NCBI GenBank assembly: GCA_018831265.1
Contig: JAHJCO010000041.1
Coordinates: 33,700-97,699 of the forward strand
Direction: 5' to 3'
Length of the DNA stretch: 64,000 bases
Source: Actinomycetota bacterium
GTDB lineage: Bacteria; Actinomycetota; Geothermincolia; Fen-727; Anoxymicrobiaceae
Every line of letters begins with the position of its first letter. Position 1 is the first letter of the stretch. Both the position numbers and the translations under genes were made by a program. The notes below the pieces were generated by a model. That model was given only the letters and a program-made list of their open reading frames with translations, did not search any database and was not told where the DNA came from. Positions 10,015-53,191 of the stretch are shown here, piece after piece.

Positions 10015-10078
10015 CACCCCCACCCAGGCCCTCCCCCCTCGAGGGGGAGGGAGGAATCGGGCTCGTGAAAGCAGGGCT

Positions 10079-11345: not shown

Positions 11346-13625
11346 GTGCTGCTGCTGGTCGCCGCCTCTCTGGTGCCATGCTTCTTCGCGATCCGGACGC
11401 TTCAGGTGAGCACGCGCTACGTCGACCTCCTCCCCCAGGAGCATGCGGCGGTCAAGAACTACTTCAAGGCGTTCGAGAAGTTCGGCGGCACCGACTACAT
11501 GATCGTGCTCATCGAGGCGAATGACGCCGGGCAGGCCCGCGGGCTGGCCGACGAGATGGCCTTCGAGATGGACGAGACCGGCCGGTTCAAGTACATCCAG
11601 TACAAGGCGGACGTGACCCGGTTCCAGCGATACGGGCTCCTGTTCCTGGACAAGGACACGCTGAACGAGCTGGACCGGCTGCTGGCCGAGAGGAACATCG
11701 ACGAGCTCGCGAAGATGGCGCAGTCGTTCCTGGCGCTGCGCGAGGAGCTCTCGCAGGCGTTCGGCGGCGGTATAACAATAGATGACCAGGGGTACTTCAC
11801 CAGCGACGACGGCAAATCGGTGCTGCTGGTGGCCCGGCCGTCCTTCAACGCGGACGACAGCGCGAAGGCCGGTCCCCTGGGCAGGGAGATGGGCGAGCTC
11901 GCCGGCGACATGGAGAAGCAGAACCCGGGCGTCAAGGTGTGGCAGGCGGGCAACTACGCGCTGCAGTACGAGCAGAGGAACGTGGTCAACCGCGACATCC
12001 TGGTGGTGGGGCTGATAGCCCTCCTGGCGATCGTGGTGGTGCTGGCCGTCGCCTTCAGGGGTCTGACCGAGCCGCTGCTGGCCATCGCTTCGCTGGGTGT
12101 GGGCGTGATGTGGACGCTGGCCTTCGCGCGGATGACGGTGAAGTCCCTGAACACGGTGTCGTCGGTCTTCGCCGCCGTGCTGATGGGCATCGGCATGGAG
12201 TACGGCATAGCGCTCCTGGCACGTTACCGGGAGGAGAGGGACCGGGGCAGCGACGGCCGGCAGGCGTTCGTGTCCGCGCTGTCAAACACCGGGAAGGGGA
12301 TAATCACCGGCGCGCTTACCACCGCCGGCGCCTTCTACGCCATAGTCTTCTCCGAGTTCAAGGCCATGCACGACATGGGACTGGTCCTGGGCACGGGCGT
12401 GCTGTGCACTCTGCTCGCCACCTTCTTCGTCCTGCCCGCCCTGATGACCATGAAGGAGAAGCTGATCCCCTACAAGCCCAGGGAAGGCGAGAGCTCCAGC
12501 AGGCTGATGCGCCGGGAGGGCTCGTTCGTCGCCGGGCGCCCGTGGTGGATCATCGTGGTGGGGCTGGTGATAACCATCGGCCTGGGGACCAGCGCGGGCT
12601 TCATCAAGTACGAGAGCAACATCCGCAAGGTGGAGCCGCGGGGGATGGAGGTGACAGAAGCCGAGGAGAAGCTGGCTTCCGAGTTCGGCATGGGCTCGGA
12701 CTTCGTGATCGTGCTGTCGAACAACGAACCGGCCATGCGAGAGGTGACCGATAAGCTGGCGGAGCTGCCCAGCGTGCGGGCGGTCGAGTCCCTGGCGACC
12801 ATCATCCCGTCGGAACAGCTCGGCAAGCTGGTGCTGATGTCGCGCATAAGGACCAAGATCCAGAGCATCAACCCGGACTGGCTGTCCTACGTGCCGCCGG
12901 AGATGCTCGTCGTGCTGGACGACATAGGCTCGGACACCCTCACCGTGGACAAGCTGCCCTCGGACGTGCTGCAGAAGTACGTCTCCACCGACGGGACGTA
13001 CGCGACCTACGTCTATCCCAGGAAGAGCATGTCCGAGGAGAAGAACGTCAACGAGTTCCTCGACCAGGTGCGGCAGGTGTCCACGGACGTGATCGGCTTC
13101 CCGGTGATAGTGCAGGACCTGCTGGAGTCGACCCGCAAGGGCCTGAGCGATACCACCCTGCTCTCGGCGGTGGTGGTCATGCTGATGGTGGTGATCGACT
13201 TCCAGGCGGTGCTACCCTCGCTGCTGGCGCTGCTCCCGCTGGCCTTCGCCATGGTCTGGATGATCGGGGCGTTCAACCTTCTTGGGATGAAGTTCAACAT
13301 AGTCAACATCGCCGTCACGCCCATGATACTGGGCATCGGGGTGGACTTCGGCGTCTACGTGCTGCACCGCTACGAGGAGGAGCACCTCCTGGAGGGCGAG
13401 ACCATCCCCTCCGTGCTCGCACATACCGGCAAGGCCATACTGGTCTCGGGCCTGACCGTGGTGGCGGCGTTCGCCGCTCTGTTGCTGGCGCGCTACCGGG
13501 GGCTGGCCTCCCTGGGTCTGGCGGCGGCGCTCGGCATCGGCTCGGCGGTGATAATCTCGGTGACGCTGCTGCCGGCCATCCTGCGGGTCCTTGAGAAGAA
13601 GCGCAAGAGCGGCCGCGCCTTCTGA
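11346..13625 (+). CDS. MMPL/RND-superfamily lipid exporter (MmpL-like)
   Basis: 759 aa with two 6-TM bundles and two soluble loops. Start is GTG/ATG-ambiguous, but the family is clear from the TM architecture and conserved GxxxD/E patches. Confidence 0.8.
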   Translation: MLLLVAASLVPCFFAIRTLQVSTRYVDLLPQEHAAVKNYFKAFEKFGGTDYMIVLIEANDAGQARGLADEMAFEMDETGRFKYIQYKADVTRFQRYGLLFLDKDTLNELDRLLAERNIDELAKMAQSFLALREELSQAFGGGITIDDQGYFTSDDGKSVLLVARPSFNADDSAKAGPLGREMGELAGDMEKQNPGVKVWQAGNYALQYEQRNVVNRDILVVGLIALLAIVVVLAVAFRGLTEPLLAIASLGVGVMWTLAFARMTVKSLNTVSSVFAAVLMGIGMEYGIALLARYREERDRGSDGRQAFVSALSNTGKGIITGALTTAGAFYAIVFSEFKAMHDMGLVLGTGVLCTLLATFFVLPALMTMKEKLIPYKPREGESSSRLMRREGSFVAGRPWWIIVVGLVITIGLGTSAGFIKYESNIRKVEPRGMEVTEAEEKLASEFGMGSDFVIVLSNNEPAMREVTDKLAELPSVRAVESLATIIPSEQLGKLVLMSRIRTKIQSINPDWLSYVPPEMLVVLDDIGSDTLTVDKLPSDVLQKYVSTDGTYATYVYPRKSMSEEKNVNEFLDQVRQVSTDVIGFPVIVQDLLESTRKGLSDTTLLSAVVVMLMVVIDFQAVLPSLLALLPLAFAMVWMIGAFNLLGMKFNIVNIAVTPMILGIGVDFGVYVLHRYEEEHLLEGETIPSVLAHTGKAILVSGLTVVAAFAALLLARYRGLASLGLAAALGIGSAVIISVTLLPAILRVLEKKRKSGRAF

Positions 13626-13770
13626 AAGAAAACCTCAGACCATTTCTTTCATCCATGAAAGAAAACCTCAGACCATTTCTTTCATCCATGGCCTGAGACT
13701 GATCTTCTGTGAAACTTCTGGTCTGAGGTAATCTTTCAGTGAAACTTTTGGTCTGAGGTAATCTTTCAGT
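13625..13770. repeat. 4 tandem units of an AT-rich ~30-bp element (2x GAAAGAAAACCTCAGACCATTTCTTTCATCCATG, then 2x inverted variant CTGAAAGATTACCTCAGACCARAAGTTTCAC)
   Basis: Read directly; begins at the MmpL stop. The same element recurs at 38776, 49844 and 51876. Not CRISPR-like: there are no unique spacers. Confidence 0.8.
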
Positions 13771-13771
13771 A

Positions 13772-14890
13772 TTAGGTCTTGCCCAGCTCCGGAGCGAGTT
13801 CGCCTGAGGGTTCCTCGGCGCGGCGTCGCAGCGGGAACATGGAAAGGCCGATGAGACCGGCCGCTATCGGCAGCCAGAAGGAGAAGAGGCGGTAGGCAAG
13901 GACCCCGGCTATGGCGACCTCCGGCCTGATGCCCATGGCCACGTACACCAGGACCAGGCTGCCCTCGACCAGGCCCAGCCCCCCGTGGGTCACCGGCACC
14001 ACCATCATCGCCATCCCGATCCCGTAGCCGAAGAGGAGGACCCAGAGGTTCACGCCGCGGGAGAACGCCAGGAAGCAGGCGGCCAGGCAGAGCATGTCGA
14101 ACGCCCAGTAACCGACCGATCCGGCCATGGCGCCGGAGAGGCGGCCCCGACCCCCCAGGAACGATCGCAGCTGCGCCCCCGACTCCACCACGGTCTCGTC
14201 CACCTTCTCGCTGAGCCTGATCCTGCCGCGGGATACCTTCAGCAGCCGTGGCCGCAACCACCGCAGGCTCGAAAGCAGGACGTCGGTCCTCACCAGCAGC
14301 CAGAAGCAGGCCGCGAACACACCGCTCAACAGGGCCGCCCCGGCGAGCGCCGCGGCAGCGTAGCCCGAAGACAGCAGGCCCGTGACCGTCGTCATCACCG
14401 CGCCTAAGCAGAAGAAGGCCGCCAGTACCGCGCCCGAGACCAGGTTGGCGACGACCACGTAGGCGACGCTGCGCTCGGGCGTGCAACCGTTGTTGGTCAA
14501 CCCCTTGTAGTAGAAGTAGAGCCCCCCGGCCCCGCCTCCCGGCGTCACGTTGCCTATGCCGTACGCCGTGACCTGCGTGTGCAGCGCTCGCGGGAAGGTG
14601 AAGCGCGGAGTGCCCGGCCTGCACAGCCGGTAGAAGAAGTACGAGTAGCCCAGGTAGCTCACCGCCTCCAGCCCGAAGGCGACGCCGATCAGCCGCAGGT
14701 CGGCCCCACGGATGACCCGCAGGGTCCTGGCAAGGCTGGACCGCTGGCTCAGCACCGTGTAGAGGGCGAACGCCACCAGTGCCACCACCAGAAGGTCCAG
14801 CAGCAGCTTGAAGTGCCGGCTCGCGCTTCCTTTCTGAGGGGAATCCACCGGTTGCCTCCAACCAGGAATCGAGGTAGGTCTATAGTACAC
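13772..14890 (-). CDS. integral membrane protein, lysylphosphatidylglycerol-synthase TM-region/UPF0104 (flippase-like) family
   Basis: 372 aa, ~8 TM helices, with the ...AYRLFSFWLPIAAG... motif typical of the LPG_synthase_TM domain. The overlapping ORF 13668..14861 in another frame was rejected. Confidence 0.5.
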   Translation of the reverse strand: MYYRPTSIPGWRQPVDSPQKGSASRHFKLLLDLLVVALVAFALYTVLSQRSSLARTLRVIRGADLRLIGVAFGLEAVSYLGYSYFFYRLCRPGTPRFTFPRALHTQVTAYGIGNVTPGGGAGGLYFYYKGLTNNGCTPERSVAYVVVANLVSGAVLAAFFCLGAVMTTVTGLLSSGYAAAALAGAALLSGVFAACFWLLVRTDVLLSSLRWLRPRLLKVSRGRIRLSEKVDETVVESGAQLRSFLGGRGRLSGAMAGSVGYWAFDMLCLAACFLAFSRGVNLWVLLFGYGIGMAMMVVPVTHGGLGLVEGSLVLVYVAMGIRPEVAIAGVLAYRLFSFWLPIAAGLIGLSMFPLRRRAEEPSGELAPELGKT

Positions 14891-15508: not shown

Positions 15509-15573
15509 CCCCCTCTCCCCTCGGGGGAGAGGGTCGGGGTGACTATTCCTCCCTCCCCCTTGAGGGGGGAGGG
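15509..15573. terminator. two tandem G/C-run hairpins (CCCCCTCTCCCC-TCG-GGGGAGAGGG and CCTCCCTCCCCC-TTGA-GGGGGGAGGG)
   Basis: Sits between convergent genes. The same hairpin type recurs at 10029, 35868 and 38870. Confidence 0.5.
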
Positions 15574-15642
15574 CTGGGGTGGGGGTGATTCGCTGAAGCG
15601 AGTGACTTGAATCCCGCCTGACCCCGATTCGAGTCAGACTCC

Positions 15643-21030: not shown

Positions 21031-23712
21031 ATGAAGGCTGGAACAGTGGCGGTGGCGCGGATAGCGCTCCTCTTCGTCGTCCTGGCGGTGATGGGGACGG
21101 TGCCCGCGCGCGCGGCAGGCAGTACGGGCGGGGATGCGCAGACCTACTACGTGTCCCCGTCCGGCCTCGACTCCAATCCGGGGACGCTCGACAAGCCCTT
21201 CAAGACACCTGGTTACGCCTCAAAGCAGATCCAGGCGGGCGATACCCTCATCATCCAGGGCGGCCGGTACGTGCTCTCCACCTTCTACGACGACATGATC
21301 ACCCCCCCGACCGGGACCGCTACCGCGCCGATAATCATCAAGGGGGAGGAAGGAAACCGCCCCGTGCTCGCCGGGCGCGACAACCTCTTCTCGGCGGTGG
21401 ATATCGGGGGGACCAGCTACATAACCATCGAGAACCTGGAGATAACCTCCGACAACGGGGCGCTGTTCCGGGGAGGTATCGCCGGGTCGAGCGGGCCGGT
21501 CGATCACCTGACGCTGAAAGATCTCTATATCCACCATATAGACGAGGGAGCGATGGACTTCGCGGACCTCTCGGCCGCGATCATCCAGGGCTGCGTGATG
21601 TCGTACTGCGGGTTCGGCTGCCTGGGCGGGCCCGTGGGCCAGCAGGGGGGATGGCGCGACGTCACCGTGCGCGGCTGCACTCTCTCCTACTCGGGGCACT
21701 ACTACCAGGGCGGCCCGGGGCCGAGCCCCTACGACCGGCCGGACGGGTTCGGGGTCGAGCCCTCCGAGGGGCCCATTGAGATCGTGGACACGGTCGCCGA
21801 GCACAACAGGGGCGACGGGCTGGACTCCAAGTGCAGGAACACCCATATCCACGAGTGCGTGGTCGCGAACAACTCCTGCGACGGGGTGAAGCTCTGGGGC
21901 GACGGCAGCCGGGTCGAGAACACGCTCGTCTACGGCACGGGCGACGGAGTGGGCGGCGCCTCTCCCTGGGCGGGGCTGGTCATCGGCACCGAGCAGGAGG
22001 GCGCGGACTTCGAGATAGTGAACTGCGCCATTGCCGACAACCCCGAGCGGGAGGCGTACCCGATGTACGTCGAGTACGGGGGGGCGGCCAACATCAGCGT
22101 CCTGTTCCGCAACAACATCGTCGCCGACGGCTACGGGGCGCCGTACTTCGCGCCCGAGGCCGACCTCACGCTCGACCACTGCATCCTCTACAGCCCGGAC
22201 CACCCCGACAACTCGCTGGAGGCGAACGGGAAGACCTACAGCGCCGACGAGCTGGAGGCCGGGGCGGTCGGGGAGGGAGTCCTGTGCGACGACCCGAAGT
22301 TCCTGCAGCCTGCCTGGGGCTCGGCCGGTGATTACCACCTGGAGGCGGGAAGCCCGGCAATCGACTCCGGGTCGTCGGACGGCGCTCCGGCCATCGACCT
22401 GGACGGTGCGGCCCGACCGTTCGGCGCGGGGTACGACATCGGCCCCTACGAGTACGGGGCTTTGAGGCCGGTCACGGGAGAGAGGACCTGGGGGACCGGC
22501 GCTCCGGGGGTCACGCAGCCCGGGGTCACCTGGTACCTGGCCGAGGGCTGCACCGCCGGAGGGTTCGAGACCTGGGTCCTGGTGCAGAATCCGAATAGCA
22601 CGCCCGCAACCGTGGACATCACCTACATGACCGGGGAGGGGGAGAAGCCCGGGCCCCGCGTCACCCTCCCGCCGGACTCGAGGGCGACGGTGAACGCGGC
22701 CGACACGGTGGGACAGGCCTGGGAGGTCTCGGCGAAGGCGTCCTCCAACGTACCGGTGGTTGTGGAGCGCGCCATGTACTGGGGCGGCCGGACCGGGGCC
22801 CACGGCTCGACGGGGGTGAGCGGGCCGGCAACGGACTGGTACCTGGCCGAGGGCTGTACCGCCGGCGGCTTCGAGACCTGGGTGCTCCTGCAGAACCCCG
22901 GAAGCGTCGAAGCCAACGCACAGCTCACTTTCATGACGGATACCGGACAGGTAACGGGCCCTTTAGTGGTATTGCCCCCGGGCACGCGCCGGACGGTGAA
23001 CGTCGCGGAGACGGTGGGCGAGGCCTGGAACGTTTCCACCGGGGTTGACTCCGATGAGCCGGTCGTCGCCGAGCGGGCGATGTACTGGAACGGGCGCGCG
23101 GGCGGCCACGACTCGGTGGGGGTGACGGCGGCCTCGAAGACCTGGTACCTCGCCGAGGGCTCCACCGGGGGCACGTTCGAGACCTGGCTTCTGCTGCAGA
23201 ACCCGGGAGACGTGCAGGCAAACGCGCAGGTGACCTTCATGACGGACGCCGGGCCGGTCACCGGCCCTTCGGTGGGGTTGCCCCCGGGCACGCGCCGGAC
23301 GGTCAACGTCGCGGAGACGGTGGGGGCGCAGTGGAGCGTATCCACCGAGGTGTCGTCAGACCAGCAGGTCGTCGCGGAGCGGGCGGTCTACTGGGACGGG
23401 CGGCGTGAGGGCCACGACTCGGCCGGGGTAACCTCGCGAGGCAAGACCTGGTATGTAGCCGAGGGCTGCACGGGCCAGGGTTTTCAGACCTGGATACTGG
23501 TACAGAACCCGGGCACGCAGAACGCCACGGTGAGCCTGGAGTACATGACGGGTAGCCGACAGGTGACCGGTCCCACGCTCATCCTCGGCCCCCGGACTCG
23601 CCGCACGGTGAACGTCGCCGACACCTGCCCTGGCGAATGGAGCGTCTCCACGAAGGTCACCTCCAGCCACGACATCACCGTCGAACGCGCCGTGTACGGC
23701 GTATCCCCTTGA
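21031..23712 (+). CDS. secreted protein: right-handed parallel beta-helix (pectate-lyase/DUF1565-like) head + 4 tandem 'WYLAEG...QNP...ERAMY' modules
   Basis: Signal peptide; YYVSPSGLDSNPGTLDKPFKT... and NNSCDGVKL... coils indicate a beta-helix fold, followed by four clear module repeats. Confidence 0.8.
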   Translation: MKAGTVAVARIALLFVVLAVMGTVPARAAGSTGGDAQTYYVSPSGLDSNPGTLDKPFKTPGYASKQIQAGDTLIIQGGRYVLSTFYDDMITPPTGTATAPIIIKGEEGNRPVLAGRDNLFSAVDIGGTSYITIENLEITSDNGALFRGGIAGSSGPVDHLTLKDLYIHHIDEGAMDFADLSAAIIQGCVMSYCGFGCLGGPVGQQGGWRDVTVRGCTLSYSGHYYQGGPGPSPYDRPDGFGVEPSEGPIEIVDTVAEHNRGDGLDSKCRNTHIHECVVANNSCDGVKLWGDGSRVENTLVYGTGDGVGGASPWAGLVIGTEQEGADFEIVNCAIADNPEREAYPMYVEYGGAANISVLFRNNIVADGYGAPYFAPEADLTLDHCILYSPDHPDNSLEANGKTYSADELEAGAVGEGVLCDDPKFLQPAWGSAGDYHLEAGSPAIDSGSSDGAPAIDLDGAARPFGAGYDIGPYEYGALRPVTGERTWGTGAPGVTQPGVTWYLAEGCTAGGFETWVLVQNPNSTPATVDITYMTGEGEKPGPRVTLPPDSRATVNAADTVGQAWEVSAKASSNVPVVVERAMYWGGRTGAHGSTGVSGPATDWYLAEGCTAGGFETWVLLQNPGSVEANAQLTFMTDTGQVTGPLVVLPPGTRRTVNVAETVGEAWNVSTGVDSDEPVVAERAMYWNGRAGGHDSVGVTAASKTWYLAEGSTGGTFETWLLLQNPGDVQANAQVTFMTDAGPVTGPSVGLPPGTRRTVNVAETVGAQWSVSTEVSSDQQVVAERAVYWDGRREGHDSAGVTSRGKTWYVAEGCTGQGFQTWILVQNPGTQNATVSLEYMTGSRQVTGPTLILGPRTRRTVNVADTCPGEWSVSTKVTSSHDITVERAVYGVSP

Positions 23713-32842: not shown

Positions 32843-33061
32843 TGAGGCATTCTCCCCGTTTGCTCGAGGTTACTATAAAGCACGTTACAGGCCCGGTCCA
32901 ACTCGTACCACGCTTGTCGGCCCACGACCCTGAGTGAGTTCATCCTGCCTCCTCCTTGGCAGGCGTGACCTGGTCTCTTTGATTCATTTGCTTCCTTCCG
33001 TGTTACAGTTGCTTGATATGCTTGATCAGTTGCTTCAGCGAGGAAGGATTGGACGAGAGCG

Positions 33062-33256
33062 TTGAAGGTGCGTGATATCATCAGGATACTTGAAAAGGAC
33101 GGGTGGTTTCTGGTGACGACCAGGGGAAGTCATCGACAGTACAAGCATCAGATGAAGCCGGGCAGGGTTACGATAGCCGGTCACTTGAACGACGATCTGT
33201 CTCCGGGCACATTGGACAGCATATACAAGCAGGCGGGCTTGAAGGAGAGCCGATAG
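33062..33256 (+). CDS. hicA: HicA-family toxin (mRNA interferase)
   Basis: 64 aa; ...ILEKDGWFLVTTRGSHRQYKH...GRVTIAGH...LSPGTLDSIYKQAGL fits HicA/YcfA. Confidence 0.8.
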   Translation: MKVRDIIRILEKDGWFLVTTRGSHRQYKHQMKPGRVTIAGHLNDDLSPGTLDSIYKQAGLKESR

Positions 33257-33257
33257 G

Positions 33258-33485
33258 ATGTTCCGCTTTCTAGTCGTGATCGAGAAGGCAAACGGGAACT
33301 ACTCCGCATATTCTCCGGACCTGCCCGGATGCGTAGCATCCGGGGCGACCGTGAAAGAGGCGGAACGAAATATGCACGAGGCGATCGAGCTCCACGTGAA
33401 GGGGCTGATCGAAGACGGCCAGCCGGTTCCCGTCTCCGAATCCTTCGCGGAGTATTTCGCCATACCGGAGGATATCGCGCAGTAG
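33258..33485 (+). CDS. hicB: HicB-family antitoxin (UPF0150)
   Basis: 75 aa; ...VIEKANGNYSAYSPDLPGCVASGATVKEAERNMHEAIELHV is the HicB N-domain. Separated by 1 nt from hicA. Confidence 0.75.
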   Translation: MFRFLVVIEKANGNYSAYSPDLPGCVASGATVKEAERNMHEAIELHVKGLIEDGQPVPVSESFAEYFAIPEDIAQ

Positions 33486-33511: not shown

Positions 33512-35851
33512 ATGCTCCGCAAAACGATAATTGCGCTGGGGGTGGCCGTTCTCTCGGTCGCCTTCGCGCCCATGGCACTCGCCTCGAGCGGCTGGACCGG
33601 GGGGCACGACGTGGTCGGGTGCACTCAGGCCGCCACCACCTGGTACTTCGCGGAGGGGACGACCCGCACCGGGTTCAACGAGTGGGTCTGCCTGTACAAC
33701 CCCGCGGACAACGATACCAGCGCGACCTTCACCTATATGCTCGAGGACGGCAGCACCGAAGTGAAGACGTACGAGCTGCGCGCCGCGAGCCGCACCACCG
33801 TGGATGTGAACCTCGAGCTGGGGCCCGGGCACGACGTTTCGATAAAGGTCGATTCGGCAGCCCCGGTGGTCGCCGAGCGTCCCATGTATTTCCGCTATAA
33901 CGGCATGTGGACCGGTGGTCACGACGTGGTGGGGACCAACGGACCCCTGCCGGAGTGGTTCTTCGCCGAGGGCACTTGCCGTCCGGGCTTCGATCCCTAC
34001 ATCTGCATCCAGAACCCGGGCTCTGGAGACGCCGCCGTGCTCGTCACCTACATGCTGGGCGACGGCACCACGCGCGAGGAGAACCTGACCGTCGGTGCGC
34101 ACAGCCGTTCGACGGTCGTCCCCAGGCAACTGCTGGGCGAGGGCGACGACGCCGCGCACGACTTCTCCGCGCACGTGGAGACGACCAACGGCGCGCTTAT
34201 CGTGGCCGAGCGCCCGATGTACTTCAACTACAAGGGCGGCTGGAGCGGCGGGCACGACGTGGTGGGCGCGACCGCCCCATCGACCGCGTTCCACTTCGCC
34301 GAGGGGACGTGCCGCCCCGGCTTCGATCCTTACCTCTGCATCCAGAACCCGAGCGACAAGACCTCCCGCCTCCGGATCACCTACATGCTGGGTAGCGGCG
34401 CTACCCAGGCCCAGTCCCTGGCCATCAGCCCCCACTCGCGGTCAACGGTCGTCGTCAAGCAGGTGCTGGGAGAGTTCGACGACCCGGCCCACGACTTCTC
34501 TGCCAGCGTGGAGACGACCGACGGGAGCAAGGTCATCGCCGAGCGGCCGATGTACTTCAATTACAAGGGGGCCTGGACGGGCGGGCACGACGTGGTCGGG
34601 GCTACCTCTCCCGCCCAGTCGTTCTCCTTCGCCGAGGGCACCTGCCGTCCAGGCTTCGACGCCTACCTGTGCATCCAGAACCCCGGGCCCGAGACCTCCG
34701 CCATCAATATCACGTACGTGCTGGGGGACGGGACCAGCCGGCAGCAGGCGCTCGACGTCGGCCCCAACAGCCGGGCGACCGTCTTCGTCAAGGACGTGCT
34801 GGGGGAGGGCAACGACCCGGCGCACGACTTCTCCGCCACCGTCGCCACGACCAACGGCACGGAGATAATCGCCGAGCGGCCCATCTACTACGACTACTAC
34901 AGCACCGCGAAATGGTCGATGGCCGTGCTCGGGGACGTGAACCTCGGTGGCGACGTGTCGCCGACTCTGGCCGCCAACGGCTTCGGGTACGTGTGGACCG
35001 GGGTCGGCCCGTATATCTCGGAGGCGACCCTGGGATTCGCGAACCTGGAGTGCACCATGTCATACCAGGGCTCGCCGGTCCCCGGGAAGACGTTCACCTT
35101 CGAGGGCGACCCAAACGCTCTGCCCGCGATGCGTGACGCAGGGGTTGACGTCGTTTCGCAGGCCAACAACCACGCCCGGGACTACGGGGCGGTGGCACTG
35201 CTGGACTGCCTGGGTTACCTGGACGGGTTCGGCATCGCTCACTGCGGCGCGGGGGCCGACTACGAGAGTGCACACGTCCCCGCGTACCTCGACGCCGAAG
35301 GACTGCGCGTGGCATTCCTGGCGTACGACGACATCGGTACCGCGGGATGGTACGCCGACGCCGGCTACCCGGGGGTCTGCGACGCGACCGATACGGGCAG
35401 GCTCATCGCCGACGTCCAGGCGGCGAGCCTCAACGCCGACTTCGTGGTGGTCTCCTTCCACTGGGGCAACGAGAAGGAGTACACCCCGACGGCGCGCCAG
35501 GCGAACCTCGCGCGGCTGTCAATTGACTGCGGCGCGGACATCGTGCTTGGCCATCACCCGCACGTGGTGCAGGGGATGGAGATATACAACGGCGGACTGA
35601 TCTGCTATTCGCTGGGCAACTTTGTGTTCAACCCTGGCAGCGACGCCGGGCACTACACGATACTGACCCGGATATCACTCGACTCGCGTGGGTTCCTGCA
35701 GGCCGAGTCGCACCCGGTCCACATAGACAGCTGCCGACCGACCATCATGGGGGGCGAGGCCGGGGCCGCCTGGATTAACCAGGTGGCGGCCATAGTGCAG
35801 GGGCTGGGGACACCCGCCCGGGTGCAGGACAACGTGATGTACGTACCGTGA
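33512..35851 (+). CDS. secreted protein: 4 tandem 'WYFAEG...QNP...ERPMY' modules + C-terminal CapA/PGA_cap-like metallophosphoesterase domain
   Basis: Signal peptide, then four ~110-aa modules, then LGNFVFNPGSD...HWGNEKEYTPT...VLGHHPHVVQG, typical of CapA-family domains. Confidence 0.85.
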   Translation: MLRKTIIALGVAVLSVAFAPMALASSGWTGGHDVVGCTQAATTWYFAEGTTRTGFNEWVCLYNPADNDTSATFTYMLEDGSTEVKTYELRAASRTTVDVNLELGPGHDVSIKVDSAAPVVAERPMYFRYNGMWTGGHDVVGTNGPLPEWFFAEGTCRPGFDPYICIQNPGSGDAAVLVTYMLGDGTTREENLTVGAHSRSTVVPRQLLGEGDDAAHDFSAHVETTNGALIVAERPMYFNYKGGWSGGHDVVGATAPSTAFHFAEGTCRPGFDPYLCIQNPSDKTSRLRITYMLGSGATQAQSLAISPHSRSTVVVKQVLGEFDDPAHDFSASVETTDGSKVIAERPMYFNYKGAWTGGHDVVGATSPAQSFSFAEGTCRPGFDAYLCIQNPGPETSAINITYVLGDGTSRQQALDVGPNSRATVFVKDVLGEGNDPAHDFSATVATTNGTEIIAERPIYYDYYSTAKWSMAVLGDVNLGGDVSPTLAANGFGYVWTGVGPYISEATLGFANLECTMSYQGSPVPGKTFTFEGDPNALPAMRDAGVDVVSQANNHARDYGAVALLDCLGYLDGFGIAHCGAGADYESAHVPAYLDAEGLRVAFLAYDDIGTAGWYADAGYPGVCDATDTGRLIADVQAASLNADFVVVSFHWGNEKEYTPTARQANLARLSIDCGADIVLGHHPHVVQGMEIYNGGLICYSLGNFVFNPGSDAGHYTILTRISLDSRGFLQAESHPVHIDSCRPTIMGGEAGAAWINQVAAIVQGLGTPARVQDNVMYVP

Positions 35852-38775: not shown

Positions 38776-38804
38776 ATGAAAGAATACCTCAAACCATTTC
38801 TTGC
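38776..38804. repeat. degenerate copy of the GAAAGAAWACCTCAGACCATTTCTTTC element
   Basis: ATGAAAGAATACCTCAAACCATTTCTTGC, located in the promoter region shared by the gamma-CA and MerR genes. Confidence 0.5.
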
Positions 38805-38920
38805 ACGGACGCAACCGGGGCCGATCCGTATTAGAATCGCATGCGAAAAAACTCGGGCGAACACCTTGACTCTCCCCCCGGGGGAGGGCCGAAGATGGCG
38901 GCGGGAAGGGAGGTGAGACG

Positions 38921-39739: not shown

Positions 39740-39815
39740 ACAGCGGACTCAGTGAGCATTCACCTCAACCATTATCTCTCAACTGAGAAACAATGGTTGA
39801 GGTGAATTCTCGTCG

Positions 39816-40925
39816 TCAGTCGTTGGGGACAAGGACGTAGCCGGTTCCGCCGCAGTCCTGGCAGGTCACCCAGCCGGTCCAGCCCATCTCGTCGGTCATC
39901 CACCAGCCGCCCGTGCCGCCGCAGGTGCCGCAGACGACCCAGATATCGCTGGGGTACGGAGAGGGCGCGGGCTGTGCGTTGCGCCTGGCCTCCTCGGCCG
40001 CGGCGGCCGCCGCGGCGGCCGCCTTGCGGTTGTTGCACTCGCCTATGACGAAGTTGGCGTAGAAGGCGACCGAGTCCTGTTCCCCCACGAGCTGCTCTAT
40101 CTTCGTCGCGTTCTCGAGAAGGAACGAGCACTTGTCCAGGTAGTCGGGTAGCCCCGAGGCGTCGATGGCGCTGTTGTTCAGGTCCCCGACCGCGGCAACC
40201 GCCTCGTTGGTCCGGTCGTAGGCGCGCTGCCAGGCGTCGTCCCACTCGGCCTGTCGCTGCTTCTCAGCCTCCGCCTCAGCTTCTTCCTCGGCCGCCTTGC
40301 CGCCGCCGGCCTCGGCCGTGTACTGCATCTCGTCGGAGTCACCCCGCTTGTCCGCCCCGGACTCGAGCTCCAGCCTGGCCTCGACGTCCAGCGGCTTGCC
40401 GGTGCCGGAGGTCATCGTATACTCGATGGAGTACTCCTGTTCCGAGGAGCTCGATTTGCACTTGATGCTCTTGTTGATGAGGTTGGAGCCCTCAGAATCC
40501 ACAACCTTGACGAAAAGCCTGGCCTTGCCGTCCTCGGGGAACCTGGCCGTGTAGGCCACGGTCAGCTTGAGCTCGACATCCAGCGGGACTTCGTCCAGGT
40601 CGAGCTCGTCGTCATTCGCCTTCGTCAGATCGATGGACTCCAGCTTTGCCTCGAGGGTCGGTCCACCCCCGACAACGAGCACGAGACCGACGACGGCTCC
40701 GCCCGCCACCAGGACCGAGAGGGCGGTCACGAGGACTATCATCCACGTGGGGATCCTCCTGCCGCCGGAGGAGACCCCGACCGCTGAAGGAGCAACGGCC
40801 GGCGGGACGGCGCCGCGGGCGCGCCGGACCGCGGCACCGGCGTCCACCGCGTCGAGAGGGGTCCCGCAGCTCTCGCAGAACCTGTTCCCCTCGGGGACCG
40901 TCGAGCCGCACTGTTCGCAGTACAT
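39816..40925 (-). CDS. membrane protein: N-terminal zinc ribbon, one TM helix, extracytoplasmic domain ending in CGTCGGTG...CQDCGGTGYV (DnaJ-like CxxCxGxG pair)
   Basis: MYCEQCGSTVPEGNRFCESCG, then TM IVLVTALSVLVAGGAVVGLVLVV. Start taken as the second ATG (40925) for Shine-Dalgarno spacing; the ATG at 40931 is also possible. Confidence 0.5.
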   Translation of the reverse strand: MYCEQCGSTVPEGNRFCESCGTPLDAVDAGAAVRRARGAVPPAVAPSAVGVSSGGRRIPTWMIVLVTALSVLVAGGAVVGLVLVVGGGPTLEAKLESIDLTKANDDELDLDEVPLDVELKLTVAYTARFPEDGKARLFVKVVDSEGSNLINKSIKCKSSSSEQEYSIEYTMTSGTGKPLDVEARLELESGADKRGDSDEMQYTAEAGGGKAAEEEAEAEAEKQRQAEWDDAWQRAYDRTNEAVAAVGDLNNSAIDASGLPDYLDKCSFLLENATKIEQLVGEQDSVAFYANFVIGECNNRKAAAAAAAAAEEARRNAQPAPSPYPSDIWVVCGTCGGTGGWWMTDEMGWTGWVTCQDCGGTGYVLVPND

Positions 40926-41029
40926 CCTCATCACCTCAAGCTCTTGAATCCTCCCCGTACACACAGATTATCGGTCAAACGTGCGCGGTTCCATACCTCT
41001 GAGCAAAAAGGGGTCAAACCTGAGATTTT

Positions 41030-49843: not shown

Positions 49844-49915
49844 TGAAAGAAAACCTCAGACCATTTCTTTCATCCGATGGTCCTCTGAGAGAAAACCTCT
49901 GAGGTATTTTTTCAC
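49844..49915. repeat. GTGAAAGAAAACCTCAGACCATTTCTTTCATCC element + adjacent variant GAGAGAAAACCTCTGAGGTATTTTTTCAC
   Basis: Between the TetR stop and the glycoside-hydrolase lipoprotein start. Confidence 0.75.
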
Positions 49916-49982: not shown

Positions 49983-51053
49983 ATGGGGCGAGGATGGTCA
50001 TTCGCGGCGGTGGTCCTGGTGGCGATGCTGTCGCTGGTCTGCCTCGCCGGTTGCGGTAACCCGACGGCCGGGACCGACGCCGGCATGGACCCGGGCCTGT
50101 TCGGTATCCACCTGAGCAACAGGCTCGGCACCGGGTACGACGAGACTTTCGCGGCCTTCAGCGAGCTGGGCGCGACCTGGGTGAGGACGAGCATACCCTG
50201 GGAGAAGGTAGAGCCCGAGAACGGGGCGTTCGACTGGGAGAACACGGACAGGATGGTCGAAGCGGCTTCTGAGCACGATATCCACCTGCTGATAACGATC
50301 CGCGCGCTCAGTACCTGGGGCTGCTCCCGCGTGCCGGCGAACTGGTCGAAGCCGGGATATCACGCCGCGGTCCCCCCGGCGGACATGGCCGAGTACGAGG
50401 AGTTCGTCCGGGCGTTCGTGGGAAGGTACTCGGGACGCGGCGTCGCCTGGCAGATCGACAACGAGCCGAACGCGAAGGCGTTCTGGGACGGAACGATGCA
50501 GGAGTACTTGGCACTGCTCGAAGCGGGGTACACCGCGGCTCACGAGGCTGACCCGGGTGCGGTGGTCCTTCCGGCCGGGCTGGCATGCGGGTTCTCGCTG
50601 ACCGGTTACCCAGAGGAGAAGCGCGACCGGATCGGGGACTGGTTCACCGCGATCCTGGACACGGAGGCACACGACGCGCTGGACATGCATGACTACTACC
50701 CGGCCGAAGGGGCAAACCCCTGGGGCATAGCCTTCGGCGAATACATAGACTGGCACCGTGTGTGGATGGATGAACGGTCGGTGGACGCGCCGCTCTGGAT
50801 GAGCGAGGCGGGGGTGCCCAGTGAGCCAATCACCATCGGCGGACGGGAGATCGGCCACACGGAGTCGCGGCAGGCATCAGGCCTGGAAGCTATTTACGAG
50901 ACCTCCGCCTCGAAAGGGATCGCGCACGTATTCTGGTTGAAGCTGGTCGACACCGACGAGTACTCGTTCTCCTCGATGGGGCTGATGACCGACGATCTCG
51001 TGAAGAAGCCGGCGTGGGAGTCGTACCGGGACCTGGCGAAGAGCGACCTTTAG
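49983..51053 (+). CDS. lipoprotein glycoside hydrolase ((beta/alpha)8 barrel, GH5/GH39-like, NEP catalytic motif)
   Basis: Lipobox VCLAGCG; ...WQIDNEPN... acid/base motif; 356 aa. Confidence 0.65.
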   Translation: MGRGWSFAAVVLVAMLSLVCLAGCGNPTAGTDAGMDPGLFGIHLSNRLGTGYDETFAAFSELGATWVRTSIPWEKVEPENGAFDWENTDRMVEAASEHDIHLLITIRALSTWGCSRVPANWSKPGYHAAVPPADMAEYEEFVRAFVGRYSGRGVAWQIDNEPNAKAFWDGTMQEYLALLEAGYTAAHEADPGAVVLPAGLACGFSLTGYPEEKRDRIGDWFTAILDTEAHDALDMHDYYPAEGANPWGIAFGEYIDWHRVWMDERSVDAPLWMSEAGVPSEPITIGGREIGHTESRQASGLEAIYETSASKGIAHVFWLKLVDTDEYSFSSMGLMTDDLVKKPAWESYRDLAKSDL

Positions 51054-51875: not shown

Positions 51876-51908
51876 ATGAAAGAAATGGTCTGAGGTATTC
51901 TTTCAGTC
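51876..51908. repeat. reverse-orientation copy of GAAAGAATACCTCAGACCATTTCTTTCATCGG
   Basis: In the promoter region of TetR 51057-51737. Confidence 0.75.
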
Positions 51909-51910
51909 AG

Positions 51911-53191
51911 TCAGGGCCAGTCCGTTATGGTGGTCCGGCCTGCCGGCACCGTGCGCACGCGTTCGTCGTTCACGGGCAGGCGCCTGTAGTGGAGGACCGC
52001 GAGCAGGGTCATGGAAAGGAGCATGGCCAGTATCAGCGCGTAGCCGGGCAGGTGGCGCCAGTTCTGATTGAGCACCGCGTAGATGATGAAGGCGACCAGC
52101 AGGACGCACGGCCATGAGAGCTTGACCACGGCCGCCCTCCTGGCCTTCCTCGTGTCGAAACCATCCCCGCCGACGAAGGTACCCGGGGAGCGTGCGGCAA
52201 GCGCGATCATGACCAGGCAGGCTGCCGCCAGCAGCGGCACGAAGACCATGCTCCTGGTTCTGTGGTAACCCCAGACGGCGACGAAAGGAGCCGCGAAGAG
52301 GAGGAACCCGATTGCCGCCCGCCTCACACGCTCGGCCACAGGGACCTGTACGAGACCCGACTGCCGCAGCTCAGCGACGCGACGCGAGTAGTGGTAGACA
52401 CACTCGAAGCACCCGGCACCCGCCACCATCACCGAGCACGAGAACGCCAGAGCGATGACGACCGCAGGCGCCTGCAGAGAGCCGCCGGGCGCGAGGAGCT
52501 CCGCGATGGACAGCGGCCAGAAGACTCCGTTCGCCGCGAGTACGAGCACTCCCGCCAGGATGAGGGAGGGGTACCACCGGACCTCGCGGAACAGCCGGAA
52601 GCCCGACGCGACGCCGGAGAAGGGATTCCCGGTCCCCTCGTAGACGGCGCAGTGATAGCCGAGGAGGAACGGCGATATCAGGGGCGCCGCCGGCACCACC
52701 GTCGCTCCCAGAAGCACCGAGCCGACGAGGAACCCGACAACGCCGCCGAGATCCGCACGCGCCGCGTCGGGCACCATGACCTCCATGAAACGGGACATAA
52801 GGTAGATGCTCGCGAACGACACCGAGAGGACGATGACACCGAGGGCGAGCGCGGTCGGTATCATCGGGGCGAAGCGGCGGACGGAGCCCTTCAACCGGGG
52901 CCACCCCGCCAGGCCGAACGAGCCCTCCGCGAGGTAAGCGACGGCGAAACCGTAGAGGATCAGTAGCACACCGACGGCAACAACAGCGCACAGCACGAGT
53001 GCGGGCGTGGCGTCGCCGACTCCCGGCATGCGTACCCCGGTGCGGGCCAACCATGGGAGGAGGATCGCCGTGGCGGGCAGCAGCAGTGCCCCCACCGCCA
53101 GAGGGCTGCGGCCGAGCGAGACCAGGCCGTGCGACAAGGTCCGCGCTATCAGCAGGAAGCCTCCACGCAGCCCGAGACCCTCTTCGCCCAT
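51911..53191 (-). CDS. polytopic integral membrane protein, unknown function
   Basis: 426 aa, about 10 TM helices, no recognisable motifs. Confidence 0.5.
   Translation of the reverse strand: MGEEGLGLRGGFLLIARTLSHGLVSLGRSPLAVGALLLPATAILLPWLARTGVRMPGVGDATPALVLCAVVAVGVLLILYGFAVAYLAEGSFGLAGWPRLKGSVRRFAPMIPTALALGVIVLSVSFASIYLMSRFMEVMVPDAARADLGGVVGFLVGSVLLGATVVPAAPLISPFLLGYHCAVYEGTGNPFSGVASGFRLFREVRWYPSLILAGVLVLAANGVFWPLSIAELLAPGGSLQAPAVVIALAFSCSVMVAGAGCFECVYHYSRRVAELRQSGLVQVPVAERVRRAAIGFLLFAAPFVAVWGYHRTRSMVFVPLLAAACLVMIALAARSPGTFVGGDGFDTRKARRAAVVKLSWPCVLLVAFIIYAVLNQNWRHLPGYALILAMLLSMTLLAVLHYRRLPVNDERVRTVPAGRTTITDWP

Follow-up and report, generated by a model that had tools for sequence, protein, structure and literature searches.

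The 64,000-nt stretch of contig JAHJCO010000041.1 (assembly GCA_018831265.1, an actinomycetotal genome of the Anoxymicrobiaceae), here called the window, contains a gene for an MmpL protein (11346–13625) that converges on a minus-strand LPG_synthase_TM gene (13772–14848), and the entire 146-nt spacer between the two is occupied by an array of a short repeat that we name REP-A. The consensus unit TGAAAGAAAACCTCAGACCATTTCTTTCA is 29 bp long and consists of a 9-bp inverted repeat around ACCTCAGACCA, with arms in a 9-N11-9 arrangement. The first-pass annotation of the window had described an AT-rich element of about 30 bp in at least seven copies with an internal inverted repeat, and this description holds: we count eight full copies and one decayed copy at four loci, and the earlier positions are right to within 1–2 nt. 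The two direct and two inverted copies reported behind MmpL are likewise present, together with a fifth, decayed unit. In this report we describe the repeat, its relatives and its genomic surroundings, and we argue that it is very probably a repetitive extragenic palindrome (REP)-like family, of the REP/REPIN or terminal inverted repeat (TIR) kind, with a cognate Y1 HUH transposase of the RAYT/TIRYT type (RAYT stands for a tyrosine transposase associated with REPs).

REP-A units in the window and beyond

The units and their surroundings in the window are as follows.

13623–13651, plus strand: REP-A unit 1, with the consensus sequence; MmpL (11346–13625) has the first TGA of this unit as its stop codon
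13656–13684, plus strand: REP-A unit 2, an exact 33-bp tandem duplicate of unit 1 with a TCCA spacer; 52 bits
13686–13709, minus strand: decayed REP-A unit, placed at the tip of the hairpin that the array forms, read from the sequence; TRF reports a period of 30 with 2.7 copies
13710–13738, minus strand: REP-A unit, GATT..GAAG variant, inverted relative to units 1 and 2; from the sequence and the covariance model
13740–13768, minus strand: REP-A unit, GATT..AAAG variant, 3 nt from the LPG_synthase_TM stop; 45.7 bits
13623–13768, no strand: the whole 2+(1)+2 array, which forms a hairpin some 150 nt long on each strand and fills the convergent spacer
38777–38805, plus strand: diverged REP-A unit with a ACCTCAAACCA core and 3 mismatches, in the divergent spacer between a hexapeptide-protein gene and a MerR gene; 44 bits
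49844–49872, plus strand: REP-A unit, consensus, 88 nt past a TetR stop
49886–49914, no strand: palindromized REP-A unit, matching the inverted form at 23/29 positions and the direct form at 21/29; 34.5 bits
51819–51847, plus strand: possible decayed inverted partner of the 51877 unit (..GAGCTCAGACTCATTCC..), of low confidence, from alignment to the corresponding site of a related genome, which holds a dimer of a sister repeat, REP-B
51877–51905, minus strand: REP-A unit in sense orientation, 5 nt past the stop of a gene for a 426-aa protein (51911–53191, minus strand); 51 bits

The two conserved minus-strand units of the array represent the variant TGAAAGATTACCTCAGACCA[A/G]AAGTTTCA, and the units at 49844 and 49886 form a dimer with a 13-nt spacer. 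Allowing at most 3 mismatches, the consensus TGAAAGAAAACCTCAGACCATTTCTTTCA has five matches in the window and none in 100 dinucleotide-preserving shuffles, and the 11-nt core of the unit has seven window matches against a mean of 1.3. A covariance model built from 15 units and run over the window with filters off found no further REP-A units, and Rfam at gathering thresholds gave no match in the window.

The stretch beyond the right end of the window was read on sequence L013, from contig JAHJFB010000063.1 of the metagenome-assembled genome (MAG) GCA_018824995.1 (Actinomycetota), in which the window is also contained. It adds a single unit at L013 15752, 4 nt past the stop of an FAD-binding protein gene, and a further group described in the next section, so that some 82 kb of a single contig carry 14 full REP-A units and one decayed unit at six loci, all of them intergenic save for shared stop codons. 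In independent short-read assemblies of the same population, the Logan unitigs L007 and L012 end inside REP-A units (window 13650, 49847 and about 51903), as expected if these sequences of 29–33 bp recur in the genome.

A Y1 transposase gene bracketed by REP-A

About 5.4 kb past the right end of the window, on the same contig, lies a gene with a Y1_Tnp domain that encodes 254 amino acids, which we call RAYT-A.

L013 18684–19448 (window-equivalent 69433–70197): RAYT-A gene, Y1 (HUH) transposase
L013 18527 and 18571, plus strand: two direct REP-A units upstream of the gene
L013 19494, 19544 and 19575, minus strand: three inverted REP-A units downstream of the gene

The gene is thus bracketed by its repeat in inverted orientation (L013 18527–19603; L001 4423–5365), as is the gene of the sister repeat treated below (L017/L019). 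Where a short palindromic repeat is dispersed and inverted copies of it enclose a transposase gene, the layout has been called a REPtron, or a TIRtron if the flanks are called TIRs (PMC3733652, PMC6006769). Because a matching HUH transposase gene is flanked by inverted copies, REP-A is best understood as a known type of mobile repeat and not as an operator.

The assignment of RAYT-A is supported at the level of sequence, profile and predicted fold. Pfam PF01797 (Y1_Tnp) matches it with 40.1 bits, above the cut-off of 23; among the NCBIfam models the best match is NF047646, the REP-associated tyrosine transposase (E 2.4e-17). The protein has the HUH motif HHYHLLLE and the tyrosine motif KYIVLNPVRDGF, and across 42 aligned homologues there is no variation at H60, H62, Y119, N123, P124 and V125. 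A single-sequence search of the PDB returned spurious kinase matches; the family profile of the 42 homologues has one PDB match only, E. coli TnpA-REP (4ER8, E 7.8e-4), with the same motifs aligned. An AlphaFold2 model (pLDDT 90.3) likewise finds 4er8_A at Foldseek PDB rank 1 (E 4.8e-7, target TM 0.74), with the TnpA structures of IS608 and ISDra2 ranking lower. In the model, residues of about 145–254, an extension of some 110 residues, form a helical domain that ends in a helix-turn-helix (HTH)-like three-helix bundle (210–244), and a weak match to a LacI-type HTH is also detected (E 5e-4). Homologues number more than 3,800; they often carry Pfam hits to HTH_23, HTH_28 or HTH_38 (PF13384, PF13518, PF13936), and many of them bear the JGI name ‘REP element-mobilizing transposase RayT’. 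We infer from these features that RAYT-A matches the HTH-bearing TnpA-Y1 subclass 2.1, which the literature equates with the TIRYTs (PMC6006769). A Thiobacter homologue, 51% identical, has on either side 25-nt inverted repeats with the GGGGWSAS motif, a typical feature of TIRYT flanks; contig L022 of Thiobacter aerophilum shows a tandem duplication of a 1150-bp unit with the homologous Y1 transposase gene, and each of the copies lies between 25-nt TIRs (TGGGGTCAGGCCTTTACTTTATACT). Upstream of RAYT-A, a conserved AT-rich region (TTGCTT...TACAAT; L013 18640–18686, L001 5262–5310) ends about 9 nt before the ATG, which suggests that the gene has its own promoter and a near-leaderless mRNA.

The transposases found in this way also bear on the proposal of a tiny MITE (a miniature transposable element with inverted repeats), taken here as a classical element derived from a DDE-transposase insertion sequence with TIRs and target-site duplications. 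REP-A is indeed short, AT-rich and dispersed with inverted termini, and assemblies break at its copies in unitigs L007 and L012. The 29-bp unit is, however, far below the usual size of a MITE, aligned flanks display no target-site duplication, no DDE transposase is encoded in about 100 kb of annotated contig, and the repeat-bracketed transposase genes are Y1 HUH enzymes only. Given the lack of target-site duplications and of a DDE transposase, a classical MITE is highly improbable. What survives of the proposal is the resemblance to a non-autonomous repeat served by a transposase, though one of the REP/REPIN kind and linked to a Y1 HUH enzyme.

A sister pair, REP-B and RAYT-B

RAYT-A has a paralogue in this genome, RAYT-B (P0002, contig 75), which is 68% identical to it and is flanked by four direct units of a second repeat, REP-B, upstream and three inverted units downstream. 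The REP-B consensus is about TGAGAATTCACCTCA(A)ACCATTATTTCTCA. One head-to-head dimer of this family, missed by the first-pass annotation, lies in the window between the MerR stop (39739) and a convergent gene (39816–40964).

39753–39781, plus strand, and 39784–39812, minus strand: REP-B head-to-head dimer with a 2-nt spacer (TGAGNATTCACCTCAACCATT..TCTCA); −33.8 kcal/mol, z −9

A related MAG, introduced below, holds a RAYT-B orthologue at the same place with the same REP-B family, and both transposase paralogues are syntenic in the two MAGs.

Distribution and turnover between genomes

With one genome per species searched, the strict REP-A pattern recovers only one other MAG, JAZDFZ01 (GCA_043807425.1), at 4 loci. 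Viral contigs scanned for REP-A and REP-B gave no matches. A pattern match in a JGI metagenome (L005) is without the palindromic arms and was judged to be due to chance. Because only one other MAG matched, the metagenome match is chance-like, and neither the viral contigs nor Rfam gave a match, the REP-A family is, as judged from the sequences searched, confined to a narrow lineage.

Contig 19 of this relative is syntenic with the window contig: the MmpL proteins are 96% and the 426-aa proteins 92% identical, and a syntenic stretch of 4.9 kb has 87.5% nucleotide identity. A view of the relative as very divergent, based on BLAST identities of 68–88%, was discarded; those matches are paralogous DUF5719 genes and other non-orthologous loci, and the true synteny is at about 87%. 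In the relative the MmpL gene ends in TAA, and the MmpL/LPG-synthase spacer, 34 nt long, is free of the repeat and has a 9-bp hairpin rich in GC (−18.5 kcal/mol); its 22-kb orthologous region around MmpL contains zero REP-A units. Behind the 426-aa gene, the window has a REP-A unit with its possible decayed partner, whereas the relative has a perfect REP-B dimer, the first TGA of which is the stop codon of the gene. The spacer between two TetR genes is occupied by a REP-B dimer in the relative, and by REP-A units and an extra glycoside-hydrolase gene in the window. The flanks of RAYT-A, finally, carry 2+3 units on the window contig and 1+1 at the syntenic site of JAZDFZ01, where the protein is 98% identical.

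Since the relative lacks the repeat at the MmpL site, has REP-B dimers at two other sites and differs in the number of flanking units, the copies turn over between lineages, with a dynamic repeat content and enzyme genes that stay put. Dynamic repeats combined with stationary enzyme genes are the published pattern for RAYTs and REPINs (PMC5581495, PMC3733652). The extra glycoside-hydrolase-like lipoprotein gene (window 49983–51053) is missing from the relative's syntenic contig L021, and this region is a possible indel hotspot, because the REP-A units at 49844 and 49886 stand at the upstream junction of the gene. The RAYT-A gene itself is about 98–100% identical in nucleotide sequence between the MAGs (L013 18684–19448 versus L001 4497–5261), while flanking genes range from 66 to 98%, and this near-identity points to either strong constraint or a recent exchange of the segment.

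Such conservation could also be understood if the HTH-bearing Y1 protein had been domesticated to bind or nick DNA and the repeats were its fixed, immobile sites in a host function such as chromosome organization or replication-linked processing. The gene is syntenic in two species and 98% identical, with 73–98% identity in the neighboring DNA, the protein has a C-terminal HTH, and RAYTs have been argued to be vertically inherited and single-copy (PMC5581495). Yet repeat positions, family identity and the number of flanking units differ between the two syntenic genomes, which argues for continuing turnover and not for fixed sites, and we regard this explanation as very unlikely.

Folding and base pairing

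A single REP-A stem of 9 bp folds at −5.6 to −6.7 kcal/mol (z −1.9 to −3.7), and only its outer 6 bp are common to REP-A and REP-B. The array at 13623–13768 folds at −78.5 and −81 kcal/mol on the two strands (z −7.8 and −6.9), and dimers fold at −34 to −46 kcal/mol. As single units are weak hairpins while dimers and arrays are strong ones, the dimer or array is the structurally meaningful unit. Head-to-head dimers are found at L002 4904/4945, window 49844/49886, window 39753/39784 and L021 11279/11312, and clusters are found at window 13623–13768 and in the transposase flanks; singles, head-to-head dimers and clusters have all been described for REP and TIR-repeats (PMC3733652, PMC6006769).

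An alignment of 21 distinct REP-A and REP-B units shows an invariant ACCTC loop motif together with invariant terminal G2 and C28-A29. Only the outer six stem pairs are consistently kept, G-U pairs are tolerated in the stem, and the asymmetric 11-nt core is better conserved than the arms. Between the two families, stem pair 4 is exchanged from A-U to G-C and pair 6 from G-C to A-U, and both still pair; in the REP-A unit L002a the arms AAA/TTT are exchanged for TTT/AAA. In covariation the alignment scores higher than any of 500 shuffles or any slid control, with few independent events, which essentially reduce to the split between A and B.

Placement relative to genes

At 13 of the 14 REP-A and REP-B loci examined, a unit lies 0–13 nt past a stop codon (in one case 88 nt); the exception to placement behind a gene is the unit at 38777, in a divergent spacer with a start codon 27 nt downstream of it. 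Units read TGA...ACCTCA...TCA on the sense strand of the preceding gene, and the unit contributes the stop codon of the gene, with its own TGA (TCA on the opposite strand), in five independent cases: MmpL, the ferredoxin-like gene of L003, a 314-aa gene upstream of RAYT-B, and the 426-aa and TetR220 genes of the relative. REP surveys, too, describe stop codons contributed by repeat termini, and head-to-head dimers as the predominant form (PMC3733652). Single units behind co-directional genes are in sense orientation in 5/5 cases, which is merely suggestive, and for dimers the sense orientation is automatic because head-to-head dimers are symmetric. The distance from unit to downstream start ranges from 21 to about 140 nt.

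This placement bears on the idea, among those put forward in the first-pass annotation, of an operator for the neighboring TetR or MerR regulator or for a nucleoid-associated protein, in which the arms would bind a dimer that controls the adjacent promoters. The palindromic 9-N11-9 arms would suit such a role, TetR or MerR genes border three of the four window loci, and the copy at 38777 closely precedes a start codon within a divergent promoter region. The statement that copies are mostly next to regulator genes is therefore correct inside the window. Outside it, none of five independent loci borders a regulator, their neighbors being FAD-binding/ferredoxin genes, a membrane protein gene and the transposase gene, a SpoIID-DUF5719 protein gene, ferredoxin-like/unknown genes, and glycosyltransferase/oxidoreductase genes; the window stretch itself is rich in regulator genes. 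Moreover, four to five units fill a convergent spacer in which no promoter is needed, most copies follow stops closely, and the distances to starts are variable, whereas a fixed distance had been put forward as the mark of an operator. The better conservation of the asymmetric core, the compensatory arm changes (L002a, and A versus B) that keep pairing and not half-site sequence, and the relative's orthologous sites, which are without the element though the same regulators are present, all speak against an operator as well, and we consider it extremely unlikely. Zur, DasR and CIRCE-like operators differ from REP-A in spacing and half-sites.

A second explanation takes the unit as a host RNA element, a hairpin selected in the 3′ untranslated region (UTR) as terminator, 3′-end stabilizer or modulator of translation termination, with the Y1 link being historical or incidental. 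It would account for the sense orientation right behind stops at nearly all loci, for the tolerated G-U pairs, and for the 2+2 array (−78 kcal/mol) found in place of the relative's GC-rich, terminator-like hairpin; roles in 3′ UTRs have been ascribed to E. coli REPs (PMC3733652; bioRxiv 10.64898/2026.03.23.713779). On the other hand, the single units are weak and without U-tracts, Rfam has no match, much of the ‘sense’ orientation follows from dimer symmetry, and two paralogous transposase genes, each bracketed by its own repeat family, would be left unexplained. As the primary explanation the RNA element is unlikely, though an RNA-level role is compatible with a REP-like mobile family as a secondary, exapted function.

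Several other candidates were considered and rejected. A reverse-strand mini-ORF (open reading frame) of five codons (ATG/GTG AAA GAA ATG GTC TGA) has no ribosome-binding site. In the case of a SECIS-like recoding of UGA, read-through yields just a short nonsense extension. The 9-11-9 geometry and the many copies do not fit a dif/Xer- or lox-type recombination site, and a CRISPR array would have spacers, of which there are none.

A GC-rich hairpin repeat, CCCTCYCCCC-loop-GGGGRGAGGG, also recurs directly past genes, once as a 40-bp tandem pair (window 10028–10053, 15510–15535, 15550–15575 and about 38868–38890; L013 19606–19640), and could represent either a third family of repeats or a type of terminator that is conserved. 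Elsewhere in the window, large genes for DUF5719-type surface proteins contain long tandem repeats of 306-bp and 333-bp period (22765–23471, 33961–34897), and precomputed Pfam hits indicate a HicA/HicB toxin-antitoxin pair at 33060–33485 (L008 15265–15688).

Weight of the evidence and a proposed mechanism

A number of features do not sit easily with a REP-like family and its transposase, and they have to be set against the bracketed genes. The apparent copy number is modest: across the related MAG, the strict pattern marks only 4 loci. At −1.6 to −6.7 kcal/mol the single units form weak hairpins, and their loop of 11–17 nt is long; in both respects they are unlike classical REPs. The 5′ GT[AG]G tag is absent, REP-A starting with NTGAAAG and REP-B with NTGAGAA after a variable base; the GGGGWSAS motif is absent from the repeats as well, and there is no GGGG in REP-A or REP-B. 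Some arrays were built by local tandem duplication (periods of 33, 30 and 50 nt, with exact blocks of 33 and 50 nt) and not by transposition. RAYT-A scores 63.2 bits with NF047646, which is below the 80-bit equivalog cut-off. A clean empty site with intact flanks, from which a target sequence could be read, was not found among the orthologous sites, which are replaced (the MmpL spacer) or occupied by REP-B.

The mobilization of REP-A and catalysis on it by RAYT-A, its mode of spread and its role at the RNA level are what we infer from the arrangement described above. RAYT-A, a Y1 HUH transposase dedicated to the family, would recognize REP-A in the form of folded single-stranded DNA and presumably copies, excises or rearranges the units. 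The invariant ACCTC(A) loop and the 6–9 bp TGAAAG/CTTTCA stem are the likely recognition features, and the inverted dimer is the likely mobile or stable unit. Units inserted behind genes would be transcribed into the 3′ UTR, where dimers and arrays could form long hairpins and possibly act in termination or 3′-end protection, and the element's own TGA may turn into the stop codon of the gene. At the MmpL spacer the array is in the position that a terminator-like hairpin has in the relative; this comparison of the two loci suggests that the array may have taken over the role of that hairpin. One can go further by analogy and picture a mobile ‘stop-and-hairpin’ cassette, whose HTH-bearing Y1 enzyme would insert units next to TGA, supply stops and replace native terminator hairpins, with the two enzyme/repeat pairs competing for the same intergenic sites. 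This extended version is unlikely; if true, subclass 2.1 (TIRYT) enzymes, for which no hairpin repeats had been found before, would gain a REP-like substrate.

Recognition of the family removes a false lead, namely a shared TetR/MerR operator, and it explains both the spurious DERNGLRFSF peptides of the six-frame translation and the breaks in assemblies. It also records a REP-like system with two co-evolving transposase/repeat pairs in an uncultured high-GC lineage of Actinomycetota; Actinobacteria are not among the host phyla listed in two surveys of REP and TIR-repeats (PMC3733652, PMC6006769). The repeat substrates of HTH-bearing RAYT-like enzymes (TIRYT, subclass 2.1) are poorly characterized, and a small non-GTAG hairpin with an invariant ACCTC loop offers a concrete substrate for their biochemistry. 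Finally, stop-adjacent placement and an array that replaces a native hairpin provide a natural case in which to study how repeats take over 3′-end functions.

Comparison with known systems

The closest counterparts are the REP/REPIN/BIME and RAYT systems, such as the E. coli yafM REPtron and the REPINs of Pseudomonas fluorescens. Like them, REP-A and REP-B are partly palindromic extragenic units in the range of 20–40 bp that occur as singles, inverted dimers and clusters, with apparently one Y1 HUH gene per family between inverted copies and the possibility of several pairs in a genome. Stop-codon-supplying termini, the variation of abundance and position among close relatives, and an enzyme fold nearest to 4ER8 are shared as well. 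REP-A differs from them in having no GT[AG]G tag and in its ACCTC loop of 11–17 nt, where REPs have long stems with bulges or else short loops; within a genome of about 67% GC it is rich in AT, it is modest in apparent copy number, and RAYT-A, unlike E. coli TnpA-REP, has a C-terminal HTH extension and scores under the NCBI cut-off for the RAYT equivalog.

Compared with IS200/IS605 elements (the TnpA enzymes of IS608 and ISDra2), the system has in common the HUH/Tyr fold of single-stranded DNA transposases, subterminal hairpins and no target duplication, and the connection with TGA may have a parallel in the way IS200/IS605 elements insert next to a specific short sequence. In contrast to these elements, the transposase gene, syntenic in two species, appears not to be multicopy together with its ends, no TnpB is present, and the repeats disperse without the gene.

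The longer RAYT-like protein with its C-terminal HTH, similar to HTH_23/HTH_28, is shared with the TIRtrons and their TIRYTs (PMC3733652; subclass 2.1, PMC6006769). In TIRtrons too, the TIRs flank the gene, can be partly self-complementary and come from moderately abundant dispersed families that occur as singles, dimers and groups. The present repeats differ from these in being without GGGGWSAS, in that each unit is itself a hairpin, and in that several tandem units stand on each side of the gene, and the host is an uncultured lineage of Actinomycetota, a phylum not named in those surveys as a host of REP or TIR-repeat families. The system is thus within the published diversity of REPtrons and TIRtrons, as a non-GTAG member.

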